Positions 60,529-63,555 of a DNA stretch of 64,000 nucleotides are shown in pieces; the stretch's first letter is position 1, and each line of letters opens with the position of its first letter. The notes below the pieces were generated by a model. That model made no database searches and was not told the origin of the DNA. It worked only from the letters and a program-made list of their open reading frames with translations. The DNA is from Thermoanaerobaculia bacterium (GTDB lineage Bacteria > Acidobacteriota > Thermoanaerobaculia > Gp7-AA8). The stretch is from contig OY970284.1 of the NCBI GenBank assembly GCA_963715895.1, positions 4,899,892 to 4,963,891 on the forward strand, given 5' to 3'. A program made the position numbers and the translations under genes.

Positions 60529-63321
60529 TCAGGGCTCCCGAGATTTCATGATTCTGATGCCTTCGAAAGCGGGCAGGTGACCATCGACACGCAGTTGAAG
60601 GATTGCCAGTGGCTGGTGGATAAGGTTGATGACCAGATCTGCAAAGGTGGACGCCCGTGGAATCCGGCCCTTGGATTGTTGCAACTCCACATTCGGAATC
60701 TCCCGGAGGATGGCTAAGGCTAGAGCGCGGCGTGCTGATTGTTGCAACTCCACACACGGATGCTTCCCGAAATGGTTGGCTAAGACTAGAGCGAGAATGC
60801 TCGCCCTGCTGCGAGCCTTTTCGAGGGGAACGGCAAGGTCCCGCTCATGGACGCATTTGAGTGCGCGAATTAACAAGATACTGAATTCAGAAGGGATTCG
60901 ATTGCCTTCGCATACAGTGTTATACGCGTCAATGATAGTTGTCAAAACGGACGCGCGATGGCCTAGATTGAAGGCGTGGTCGCGGGGCATACGACTGCGA
61001 GCGAGATCGAGGCTCATGTCGAGGACGTAGCCGAGCGCGGAGATGCTGCTGTCAAGGTCGACGTGGGATTGGTCGCGGTCAAAATCTAGGGCTCTAGAGC
61101 GATCCAGTTCGACGACATCATACAATGCAATATTAAGAGCGCCATCCGGGCCAAAGAGGTCGCCGAATTCTTCGAAATACAGATACTGATCATTGGCTTG
61201 CTGAGGCTCAGCACTTTTTGCTGCGTTCACACAGTTTGGGCCGGCCTGTGATCGCGCCCAGAAGGTTATCGACAATTCTCGGTCATGTTCTAGTTCCTCG
61301 ACTAGCGGCAACCGGTAGCTCCAAACACCGCCCTCCCGTGCTGTTAGCCAGTCGCAAAACTCTTCCGCGTCCGACGGTCTCATACCTACGACTGGCTTTC
61401 TACCTGAGTCTGAAGGATACGTGTACGTGCTCCAGTGGTCCGGCTGACGGAACTTACCGCGAGCACGCAACTCGTCGAGAAATAGCTGGTACTCAGCGTG
61501 GGTGATCAGTGTGTCGTCGATGTAGCGGTGCTCATCCAGTCGAACAAGACTGCGCAACCGTCGATTGAGAAGAGCTTCGGCGACAATTCGACGCCGCTCC
61601 GAGTCAGGGGATTCGATCTCGTGAGAGAGCACTCTATCAATACGTGCCCTTACATCGGGCTTCAGTTCGCGTGCTTCTTCTCCACATTCGAGTGCCAAAG
61701 CGAGAGCTCCGGCCGAACTTGTATTATCCAGACATGCGGCCACGATGTTGGTAGCGTCACTCTGAGCCGAAAAAAGACGCAGAGCCTCATGCCACCATGT
61801 GTCTCCTGTATGCGCGGCAAGTTCGTCTTGCAAGCCGCGCTCTCTGGCGTGCGAAGCTGCCAAGTATTCCTGAAAAGTCAGGTGAGCAAAGACGTAGACA
61901 CCGTTCTCACGTTCGAGGAGCAGCCCGCTCGAGTCTTCCACATTACGAAGGAAATCGTCGGGTGACAGCGAAGAGGTAACGCGAGAGAGCGCCTGGGCGA
62001 TCGCCGAGGCGGCGTCCTGTCGCACGATCTCACGCTTGTTGCCGGTCATCATGGCCCATGCCAGCGGCTCCAGAACTCGCTTCTTCTGTTCCGGCGTGAA
62101 ATCGAGGGAGATGCCACGAGCCTGCTGGCGCTTGCCGAGAAAGACTTCGCAGATGTCGTGGTAAAGCTCGACACGGCGCCCCGGTAATGTGCTTTGGTAG
62201 CGGTGAACCGTAGCGATCATGGTGAGAAGCAGAGGATTCACGGCCAGATCGGAGAGTGCAGAATTGCCACGCAACCGGCGCATGAGATCCGATGCGCCAT
62301 CGCGCGCCGCCATGTCGACGCCGGGATCTTTCTTCCCTGTGGCGACTGTCTCGGTAGCCAGATACCAGTTGCTCACAAATCGTTCCACCTGCGGCCAGGT
62401 GAACGTGAGCACCTGCAGCACGGTGACGCCTTCAAGCGGATTGCTGCGGTAGCCAAAGGGTCGAGAGGTGACGATGAATCGATCGTTGCCGTGGCGAGTC
62501 ATCTGCCGCTCAACCCATTCGACGACCAGACGCCGGAGATCGGGGTCGGCAACTTCATCCAGACCGTCAAGGAGAATGAGCCCGCGACCTCTGTCCAATT
62601 CGTTCTCGAGCCATCCCTCCGGAGGCTTGAGATCGGCGGCGGTGAGAGCAATGGCAATCACCGCGGTGAGCGTCAATTGCGCATCTTCCTGGATCGCTTT
62701 GGCATGGTCGCGCAGGAAGAGGAGAAACGGGGTGAAGGCGCGGAATCTCCTGTCGCGTCTCGCGGAAAGCATCAGCGCAAGGTGTTTGAGCAGCGTCGTC
62801 TTCCCGCAGCCAGGCGCTCCGATGACCGCGAGGTTGGCTCCTTCGGTGTGGCTGAGCTCCAGATAATCCCAGATCGTGTGCCGCTCTCCTGCCGAGGAGG
62901 TGATGGGATCGGGCTTGATGCTCGTGGGTGAGCGCGGATCAACACTGAGCTCCACGAAGACTTGCTCGATTTCGATGGAGTGTGCCCCCTGCGTGCTGAG
63001 GCCTTTGACGTCGAAGGATCGATGCTTGTAGCCGAGGTACGTGAGATAGCGCTTGCGGTACGAAGAGAAGAAAAGCCGAGTCTTGCGGTCGACCCAGTTT
63101 GCACAGGCATCGACCCATCGACTGTTGAGCTTTTCCCAGACCTTGGCGACGAAGCCTGCAACGAGCACGACGAGAGCGGATGCCGCGGCAAGAGCAAGGC
63201 GAAGCCAGTGATCACCCGTGAATTGCGCTGAGGCAGTCCAGACCACTGGCGGAGCGGCCAGCCCAAGAATCGCCAGAATCAACGGCTGCCATCGGCTCGT
63301 CGATGCGGGAGTCGCAGTCAT
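60529..63321 (-). CDS. NACHT-family STAND NTPase with N-terminal TM helices and C-terminal FGE-sulfatase (SUMF1-like) domain; low-GC gene
   Basis: Two N-terminal TM segments. Walker A VIGAPGCGKTTLLKHLA, Walker B GLILLDGLDEV. A SUMF1-like segment PVVGMRPSDAEEFCDWLTAREGGVWSYRLPLVEELE. A tandem protein repeat (...ILREIPNVELQQS...) is encoded by a 55-bp direct DNA repeat at 60640-60790. GC is much lower than the flanks. Confidence 0.75.
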   Translation of the reverse strand: MTATPASTSRWQPLILAILGLAAPPVVWTASAQFTGDHWLRLALAAASALVVLVAGFVAKVWEKLNSRWVDACANWVDRKTRLFFSSYRKRYLTYLGYKHRSFDVKGLSTQGAHSIEIEQVFVELSVDPRSPTSIKPDPITSSAGERHTIWDYLELSHTEGANLAVIGAPGCGKTTLLKHLALMLSARRDRRFRAFTPFLLFLRDHAKAIQEDAQLTLTAVIAIALTAADLKPPEGWLENELDRGRGLILLDGLDEVADPDLRRLVVEWVERQMTRHGNDRFIVTSRPFGYRSNPLEGVTVLQVLTFTWPQVERFVSNWYLATETVATGKKDPGVDMAARDGASDLMRRLRGNSALSDLAVNPLLLTMIATVHRYQSTLPGRRVELYHDICEVFLGKRQQARGISLDFTPEQKKRVLEPLAWAMMTGNKREIVRQDAASAIAQALSRVTSSLSPDDFLRNVEDSSGLLLERENGVYVFAHLTFQEYLAASHARERGLQDELAAHTGDTWWHEALRLFSAQSDATNIVAACLDNTSSAGALALALECGEEARELKPDVRARIDRVLSHEIESPDSERRRIVAEALLNRRLRSLVRLDEHRYIDDTLITHAEYQLFLDELRARGKFRQPDHWSTYTYPSDSGRKPVVGMRPSDAEEFCDWLTAREGGVWSYRLPLVEELEHDRELSITFWARSQAGPNCVNAAKSAEPQQANDQYLYFEEFGDLFGPDGALNIALYDVVELDRSRALDFDRDQSHVDLDSSISALGYVLDMSLDLARSRMPRDHAFNLGHRASVLTTIIDAYNTVCEGNRIPSEFSILLIRALKCVHERDLAVPLEKARSRASILALVLANHFGKHPCVELQQSARRALALAILREIPNVELQQSKGRIPRASTFADLVINLIHQPLAILQLRVDGHLPAFEGIRIMKSREP

Positions 63322-63485
63322 GATGCTACCGGCACCTTCCTCGCGGAGACTTTCTCAATATGGGAGTGATGTGCGGATGACTTTACTCCTTCTGAAAACC
63401 GATTTCCGTCCAGGGCGATCCATTTCATCCGCAGAGCGAACTACGAGAGGGGTGCGGGGCGGGGTTGGGGTTGGGTGGGGGAGGT

Positions 63486-63555
63486 GATCCGCAGATGTCG
63501 CAGATGAACGCAGATTGAAGCGGTTTTATCTGCGTACATCTGCGTCATCTGCGGA
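63486..63555. repeat. REP-like palindromic element, copy D, upstream of the NACHT gene
   Basis: GATCCGCAGATGTCGCAGATGAACGCAGAT-tgaagcggt-TTTATCTGCGTACATCTGCGTCATCTGCGGAT. Confidence 0.75.

Follow-up and report, generated by a model that had tools for sequence, protein, structure and literature searches.

What does a membrane-anchored NACHT protein do in a neighbourhood of housekeeping genes, and what is the piece of formylglycine-generating enzyme (FGE) doing near its end? Receptors of the NLR type have a central place in the immunity of animals, plants and bacteria alike, and how the sensor ends of the bacterial proteins diversify is an open question. We analysed a 64-kb stretch of the chromosome of a Thermoanaerobaculia bacterium (contig OY970284.1; hereafter the window), in which a first-pass annotation made from the letters alone had noted, at 60529-63555, a low-GC NACHT gene that was probably acquired horizontally. 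We find that the C-terminal third of the encoded protein is a module with a constant head, a hypervariable middle and a constant tail, and that in other genomes the same module occurs as separate genes, several of them behind one NACHT core. We consider it probable that the gene product is a bacterial NLR-like receptor of the STAND NTPase-FGS (FGE-sulfatase) conflict-system class, with a role as a defence sensor.

A half-domain head, a hypervariable middle and a constant tail

The gene is a single long open reading frame (ORF) of 930 codons with an ATG start (60529..63321, minus strand; called from the ORF list and Pfam matches), and the remaining listed ORFs in this region overlap it in other frames. 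The ORF noted in the first-pass annotation is thus present; its upper boundary at 63555 takes in the 5' region and a hairpin as well. The product is identical to a database protein (P0001) carried on a 6.64-Mb contig. From N- to C-terminus, it comprises a hairpin of two transmembrane (TM) segments, a conserved linker, a NACHT NTPase, a helical arm and the C-terminal module. Only two hydrophobic 19-mer segments are present in the whole protein (Kyte-Doolittle mean >1.6). These correspond to predicted TM helix 1 (residues 13-32; 63226..63285, minus strand) and predicted TM helix 2 (residues 38-63; 63133..63210, minus strand), and most of the 120 homologues compared retain both. With a loop of about five residues, the two would form a hairpin, and the NACHT domain would be cytoplasmic.

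The NACHT domain (residues 165-319; 62365..62829, minus strand) matched the Pfam profile PF05729 with an E-value of 2.4e-12 and 47.5 bits, against a gathering score of 26.7. Kibby et al. define NACHT proteins by a Walker A motif, GxxxxGK[ST], and by a Walker B motif, D[GAS]hDE, that separates NACHT from other STAND NTPases. The window protein scores above the profile threshold and its translation carries both signatures on the minus strand, GAPGCGKT (GAPGCGKTT in the translation; ~62797-62820) and LILLDGLDEV, which contains DGLDE (62551-62580). The architecture of two TM segments and a NACHT domain, proposed in the first-pass annotation, holds. The region that follows the NACHT domain (residues 320-592; 61546..62364, minus strand) has a conservation of 0.4-0.8 and probably consists of a winged helix and a helical arm; a weak match to HTH_TANC1 lies at residues 447-491 (Pfam, E 0.011). 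This region ends exactly at the point (equivalent to residue ~590) where the core proteins of family members with a split gene stop. Some family members additionally have EAD7, an effector-associated domain of conflict systems (Kaur 2020 PMC7159879; Kaur 2021 PMC8195603).

Conservation over the 120 homologues is high from residue 60 to residue 690, falls to a mean identity to the query of 4-22%, with many gaps, over residues 691-900, and is high again over residues 901-930. The head of the module (residues 593-690; 61252..61545, minus strand; delimited by profile match and conservation) ranks among the most conserved parts of the protein. The Pfam FGE-sulfatase profile (PF03781) aligned residues 600-678 with its positions 38-119 of 255 (E 4.5e-4), at a sub-threshold score of 20.4 bits against a cut-off of 23.3. 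The same profile scored 23-35 bits in eight homologues, most of them above the cut-off, and spanned ~35-141 of its 255 positions at most; the C-terminal half of the FGS domain was absent from every family member examined. A head profile derived from 36 family members (residues 586-704), and searched against all PDB sequences, matched ToxD (7spq) at E 2e-7 and PorK/GldK at ~4e-3, with FGE, SUMF2, PvdO, OvoA and OvsA at 0.06-1. The FGE-sulfatase superfamily accounts for 20 of the 23 listed PDB matches, the exceptions being two scorpion toxins and AF2331. Since the matches are nearly all to this superfamily, we conclude that the ~100-residue head is, on profile evidence, homologous to the N-terminal half of the FGE-sulfatase domain. 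The AlphaFold2 model of the head is confident (predicted local distance difference test score, pLDDT, ~90; 89 for a model of 119 aa). Three Foldseek searches (a 345-aa model against PDB, and the 119-aa model against PDB and BFVD) found no FGE-like or C-type-lectin-like fold: no match had an E-value below 0.6, and PorK reached E 3.5 with a TM-score of 0.34. The half-domain may be too small for Foldseek.

One reading of these matches is that the C-terminal region is a functional enzyme of the FGE/EgtB/PvdO type, or a lectin domain, as the Pfam match and the near-exclusive FGE-superfamily membership of the PDB profile matches would suggest. However, the catalytic cysteine pair of FGE sits in the C-terminal half of the domain, and here and in the homologues profile positions ~35-141 of 255 are the only ones that ever match. 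The remainder of the C-terminus, after the head, has neither tryptophan or glycine-rich FGE motifs nor a Pfam match, and the Foldseek searches returned no FGE folds. The sole conserved cysteine (AFCxWL) falls, in alignments with the PDB relatives, within their N-terminal half, outside the catalytic region. The part of the domain that holds the catalytic cysteines of FGE is replaced here by an unrelated hypervariable region. Because that half is missing, an FGE/EgtB/PvdO-type enzymatic role is effectively excluded; we regard the FGE-like piece as something other than an enzyme and give hardly any credence to the enzyme or lectin reading. The first-pass annotation had placed a SUMF1/FGE-like domain at the C-terminus and had raised the catalytic cysteine of formylglycine-generating enzymes. 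It was right about the superfamily, but what is present is a half-domain that scores below the Pfam cut-off and gives no FGE fold in Foldseek; ~240 residues come after it, and the part that would carry the cysteines is absent.

The middle of the module (residues 691-900; 60622..61251, minus strand) has a GC content of 54-55%, no Pfam match and a composition rich in D, R, L and A. AlphaFold2 modelled it as helices at low confidence (pLDDT 41-70), and these ~210 residues are probably helical. A local phmmer search of the variable region against 258 family proteins returned only the region itself, with the next best match at 8.7e-5 in that small set. A search with the variable region alone against a collection of 5.8 billion proteins returned nothing, and is an unreliable negative since even the identical P0001 was not returned. 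A likeness to beta-globin at residues ~820-868 (window ~60720-60865; …LALVLANHFGKHPCVELQQS… against …LALVVARHFGKDFTPELQAS…, E 0.03-1) was judged to be due to chance.

Inside the hypervariable region lies a tandem duplication of two ~63-nt units (60674..60799, minus strand). Positions 60674-60727 and 60737-60793 align over 57 nt with 81% identity and a period of 63 nt, and encode ...VELQQS... twice; TRF did not score this duplication. The '55-bp direct repeat' of the first-pass annotation corresponds to it, tandem peptide included, with the length, identity and period given here. The closest alleles are gapped over most of the second copy, and the duplication is specific to the lineage of the window.

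The module ends in a conserved C-terminal tail (residues 901-930; 60532..60621, minus strand; pLDDT 87-94), whose motif LEERIxGxLPAFEGIRIVKER is present in 98 of the 120 homologues. The sequence does not support the tail (…AFEGIRIVKER) as the last strand of the FGE fold (…GFRxxR): with a profile that joined head and tail, no FGE-family structure showed a second stretch of matches. That the tail packs on the head is hinted at only by its high pLDDT.

The module as separate genes in tandem arrays

A search of 1.84 billion representative proteins with the head profile (residues 586-704) gave 5741 matches at E-values up to 1e-3, of which 525 had an E-value of 1e-30 or lower. Among the best 150 matches, the majority are proteins of 190-390 aa that start with Met at the equivalent of window residue ~592, and nearly all of the stand-alone modules inspected end in the family tail. 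Another search found 390 stand-alone modules, often several on one contig. The same module also forms the C-terminus of a 710-aa protein (P0144) whose N-terminus is not a NACHT core but carries HEAT repeats (HEAT_2 E 1e-7); hence, it is not restricted to NACHT cores.

The stand-alone modules in several loci follow a NACHT core that lacks its own. In one array (L085, 2217-8793), a core of 598 aa with two TM segments and a NACHT domain ends …LKRRTQ* and is followed by six module ORFs. Each of these starts MQRIDENTYIDD…; all but the last end …AFEGIRLVKER…, and the final one has the ending …AFEGIRLVKYHKQF. Between successive ORFs there is a 1-nt overlap (TAATG). The first module of this array is in frame with the core, with the stop and one codon between them. 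A second locus (L086, 63% GC) has a core that overlaps its module by ATGA, and a third (L087) has a module followed by a second one, beside a putative DNA methyltransferase gene (DPPYG motif seen by eye, unscanned). A core with four modules (L088/L089; L088:8118-13480) is flanked by an AbiEii/DUF6922 pair and by a zeta-toxin-like gene with a type I restriction-modification (R-M) system. The arrayed stand-alone genes encode 215-349 aa, number four to six per core and are translationally coupled. The split cores are 48-50% identical to residues 11-590 of the window protein. Within arrays, heads are 70-72% identical and tails 57-70%, against 19-23% for the middles.

We conclude that the C-terminal module, comprising head, middle and tail, is an autonomous evolutionary unit. 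It is a tentative further step, and one we hold to be somewhat less than an even bet, that the module is a self-contained constant-variable-constant sensor cassette, such that a single NACHT switch could draw on alternative sensor subunits from a repertoire encoded in the germline. Given their near-identical ends, the cassettes could also be exchanged by recombination. A limited literature search found no description of a multi-sensor NLR arrangement or of module arrays. We regard one core with many sensor modules as the most interesting lead from this locus; the window gene alone is a further member of a catalogued class. If the modules do bind to the core, module swaps would allow a direct test of sensor specificity, and the arrangement would offer a route to receptor diversity that is independent of both diversity-generating retroelements (DGRs) and long repeat arrays.

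Allele divergence and insertion at one chromosomal site

The NACHT gene occupies the same chromosomal site in three metagenomic loci (L001/L002, encoding P0003; L083, encoding P0002; and L084, encoding P0004). We compared three full proteins from this site, that of the window, P0002 and P0003. Identity between the alleles is 91-93% over residues 66-330, 82-85% over residues 331-585, 59-80% over residues 586-690, 16-32% with many indels over residues 691-900, and 42-77% in the tail (residues 901-930). At the DNA level, the window and L001 are 90-98% identical in the flanks and 80-94% in the 5' two-thirds of the gene; identity is 69-77% over 61400-62000, and 60529-61300 cannot be aligned. The locus is a clean natural experiment: one site, an empty allele (described below) and at least three occupied alleles, with a shared NACHT core and unrelated sensor middles.

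Two rival explanations would account for such divergence. The first is that the protein is an antigen receptor with an FGS (C-type-lectin-fold) domain diversified by a DGR, as proposed for many STAND-FGS proteins, which are often DGR targets (Kaur 2021 PMC8195603; Dore 2024 PMC10907252); the hypervariable C-terminus would fit. However, the 64-kb window contains no second copy of 60400-61400 that could be a template repeat, the internal duplication aside. Moreover, the alleles differ wholesale, by indels and repeat-like gain and loss rather than by substitutions at fixed positions, and DGR variable regions lie in the C-terminal half of the FGS domain, which no family member possesses. We consider diversification by a DGR very improbable.

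The second is allorecognition or kin discrimination, in which the hypervariable module would tell self from non-self cells, as in fungal HET-type NACHT proteins, and the membrane anchor would place it at cell contacts. The extreme divergence of alleles at one locus among close relatives is what such a system would show, as are the presence/absence polymorphism and the membrane anchoring, and a parallel with the NACHT proteins of fungal heteroincompatibility has been drawn (Kaur 2020 PMC7159879). Against this, we saw no polymorphic partner locus, and a hairpin of two TM segments with a loop of ~5 residues would leave the variable module in the cytoplasm rather than exposed on the surface. The split forms, in addition, have AbiE, R-M and toxin genes as neighbours, a setting typical of anti-phage islands. 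We regard allorecognition as unlikely, though it deserves more weight than a DGR.

How did the gene reach this site? It lies between two copies of a G-rich 29-nt direct repeat, GGGGTGCGGGCGGGGTTGGGGTTGGGGGG. Copy 1 (60477..60505, plus strand) forms the left boundary of the insert and falls in the last codons of a histidine-kinase gene (59535-60512); copy 2 (63449..63477, plus strand) forms the right boundary. The window holds these two copies in total, against 0.01 expected by chance. The insert between the repeats is 2.94 kb long and consists of the single gene and its 127-nt 5' untranslated or promoter region (63322..63448, minus strand); the NACHT ORF is alone there, with no recombinase or transposase of its own. 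In a related locus (L003), the DNA of the response regulator and histidine kinase genes is 92.5% identical to that of the window, the NACHT gene is absent and one copy of the G-rich 29-nt sequence is joined directly to the hairpin that follows the insert in the window. The 3' end of the L003 kinase gene aligns to window 60414-60505, and the next bases, with a 29-nt overlap, align to 63449-63575, which contains the second copy and the hairpin; thus, L003 positions 64-92 align to both direct repeat copies. The insertion altered the C-terminus of the kinase, which reads …GLGLGGELIRRCRR* in L003 and …GLGLGGS* in the window. In more distant relatives (L004-L007), the block of ABC, response regulator and kinase genes is present without the NACHT gene; a clean empty site was not found in these four, where synteny stops at the kinase gene.

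Horizontal acquisition of the NACHT gene is well supported by these sequence comparisons, and independently of base composition, because of the empty site in L003, the flanking repeat pair and the gene-free distant relatives. This is stronger evidence than the low GC content from which the first-pass annotation had argued. Site-specific integration in trans would be one route and a single crossover with a circular intermediate another; alternatively, the event may have run the other way, as a repeat-to-repeat deletion in L003. The GC content of the gene is 57.6% against 63.5% for the window, ~2.4 standard deviations under that of segments of the same size and among the lowest 0.8% of them, with most of the deficit in the last third of the gene (54-56%). 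It is thus low, as had been noted, but moderately so rather than far below background: window 6951-9744 has a GC content of 57.2%, as low as that of the NACHT gene. The three ORFs of that other segment (6276-7115, 7082-7999 and 7992-9713) have no Pfam match at E-values up to 1e-5. Around the start of the NACHT gene, the DNA at 63301-63400 is 98% identical to L001. A promoter scan found no sigma-70 consensus near the gene, and terminator-like sites are no more frequent than expected by chance.

On one side of the insert lie the genes of the ABC/FtsX exporter, the response regulator and the histidine kinase, and on the other that of a DUF481 protein; the NACHT gene is convergent with the kinase gene across a 16-nt gap. 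When searched against GTDB genomes, the kinase assigned the window to Thermoanaerobaculia. A housekeeping role would be conceivable, in which the protein, as a signalling STAND ATPase, is tied to the neighbouring ABC/FtsX exporter and two-component system, in envelope stress for instance: the gene stands directly beside these genes, and the protein is anchored in the membrane. However, the block of response regulator, kinase and ABC genes is conserved in L003-L007 without the NACHT gene, which is itself an insertion with direct repeats, and the insertion even alters the C-terminus of the kinase. Family members occur in unrelated contexts, and no consistent co-occurrence with this two-component system across genomes was seen. 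We judge such a housekeeping role to be quite improbable.

The 3' flank of the kinase gene is a hotspot of variable gene content. A MazE-PIN toxin-antitoxin pair (~790 bp) lies between the NACHT gene and the DUF481 gene in two of the other occupied loci (L001:8919-9564 and L084:4331-4976). It is absent from the window (~63600-63700) and from L083, and L003 carries yet another sequence beyond the hairpin.

The hairpin beyond the right boundary (63487..63556, no strand assigned) resembles a repetitive extragenic palindromic (REP) element, with 9-mers of the CGCAGATG type and 29-nt arms that are 93% complementary. Its folding energy is -58.5 kcal/mol (z = -8.75). Further REP-like copies lie at ~53284, ~53756 and 57303-57385; the arms give six matches, in at least three elements per 64 kb, against 0.05 expected. 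The hairpin directly follows the kinase gene in L003 and L005 too. Since it stands directly behind the kinase gene in the empty site, it is ancestral to the locus; the flanking REP element of the first-pass annotation is thus real but is not part of the acquired gene. No Rfam family matches the hairpin, which gave only sub-threshold miRNA-hairpin look-alikes. The copy at 57303-57385 sits in the coding sequence of an FtsX/MacB-type permease (ORF 55557-57959, minus strand) and is translated in frame; the L001 orthologue of this permease has half of the REP-like copy and is 12 aa shorter. Another palindrome, at 58699-58861, is built of the 7-nt units CGGTTAT and CGGTTGT, with arms of up to 35 nt that are 97% complementary. 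This palindrome separates the ABC gene from the divergent response-regulator gene, in a stretch that is poorly conserved relative to L001.

Proposed role and relation to known systems

STAND NTPase-FGS counter-invader systems have been catalogued computationally (Kaur, Iyer, Burroughs and Aravind 2021, eLife e70394; PMC8195603). Table S1 of Kibby et al. 2022 lists the combinations NACHT+FGS and EAD7+NACHT+FGE-sulfatase, including proteins from Chloroflexi and Acidobacteria. Because these systems are catalogued, the window gene is a member of a known, computationally defined class. The family shares with that class the order of a NACHT domain followed by a FGE-sulfatase-related region, an N-terminal effector or adaptor that is interchangeable (EAD7 in some members) and an overlapping set of lineages (Chloroflexi, Acidobacteria, Deltaproteobacteria). 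It differs in that the FGE-sulfatase domains of the listed examples are ~220-280 aa long, whereas here an N-terminal half of ~100 aa is followed by a hypervariable helical stretch and a tail; in addition, the window family has an N-terminal hairpin of two TM segments, no DGR was found and the module is sometimes a separate, tandem gene. The differences from the known class are, in short, the reduction of FGS to a constant half-domain, a long helical variable part without a DGR, and a module that is separable and tandem. A figure legend in Kibby et al. names an 'FGS C-terminal domain', and part of the module anatomy may therefore already be recognised. FGE-sulfatase-like sensors are also mentioned in a 2026 STAND survey.

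Characterised systems offer partial parallels. The bNACHT01, 11, 25 and other systems of Kibby et al. are likewise single-gene systems, but belong to other clades and have mostly a short C-terminal SNaCT or repeats, and enzymatic N-termini; there appears to be no experimentally studied bNACHT with an FGS-type C-terminus. C-type lectin (CLec) domains linked to STAND proteins were described as experimentally uncharacterised (Dore 2024 PMC10907252), and our literature search turned up no experiment on a STAND-linked FGS/CLec sensor; the most recent paper to say so explicitly is from 2024. DGR variable proteins with an FGS/CLec fold (Bordetella phage Mtd, Treponema TvpA) resemble the window protein in having a FGE-sulfatase-related constant scaffold and a variable, ligand-binding part near the C-terminus. 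In those proteins a short variable region undergoes adenine mutagenesis, whereas in the window family a long helical segment undergoes replacement, indels and duplication. Finally, the membrane-disrupting TM effectors of abortive-infection systems, such as the 2TM/4TM effectors of CBASS and SLATT proteins, likewise join a short TM hairpin at the N-terminus to a sensor or switch that oligomerises. This likeness is functional only; by analogy, it suggests membrane damage on assembly.

Taken together with the probable role as a defence sensor, the most likely function of the window protein would be that of an abortive-infection-type sensor. An immune role is plausible from the family context, that is, from the EAD7 fusions and from the defence-island neighbours of split members; the MazE-PIN pair beside the gene in L001 and L084 also counts as a defence-type neighbour. 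By analogy with characterised STAND/NLR proteins, and following the proposals of Kaur et al. and Kibby et al., the protein might work as follows. The constant head and tail would dock the module on the NACHT core or the arm, and the hypervariable middle would present a recognition surface for a molecule of the invader (phage). Binding of this ligand would release autoinhibition and lead to NTP-dependent oligomerisation through the NACHT domain. The N-terminal TM hairpins, thus clustered, would damage or depolarise the membrane, with an abortive-infection outcome; in family members that bear EAD7, a separate effector would be recruited instead.

Several observations weigh against a defence receptor of this kind. 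The neighbourhood in the window is a housekeeping one (ABC/FtsX, response regulator and histidine kinase, DUF481, YkuD, M23) and contains no defence island. PADLOC gave matches at the level of the P-loop only, and a match to the NCBIfam model EruA fell far under the cut-off (39 against 1000 bits), so that neither provided a family-level assignment. The effector role of the TM hairpin is drawn purely from analogy; the hairpin could be a mere anchor, and we hold its role as an effector with clearly less confidence than the receptor assignment itself. The 'helical recognition surface' is a weak element, because the variable region was modelled with a pLDDT of only 41-70. Lastly, L003 is a metagenome-assembled contig, and its empty site could conceivably be an assembly artefact.

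The window contains two further large proteins of note. A 1889-aa ORF (20090-25759, minus strand) has no Pfam match at E-values up to 1e-5. A second STAND NTPase is encoded at 29293-31902 (minus strand; 869 aa, nSTAND1 E 4e-26), and its C-terminal region is rich in hydrophobic, TM-like segments.

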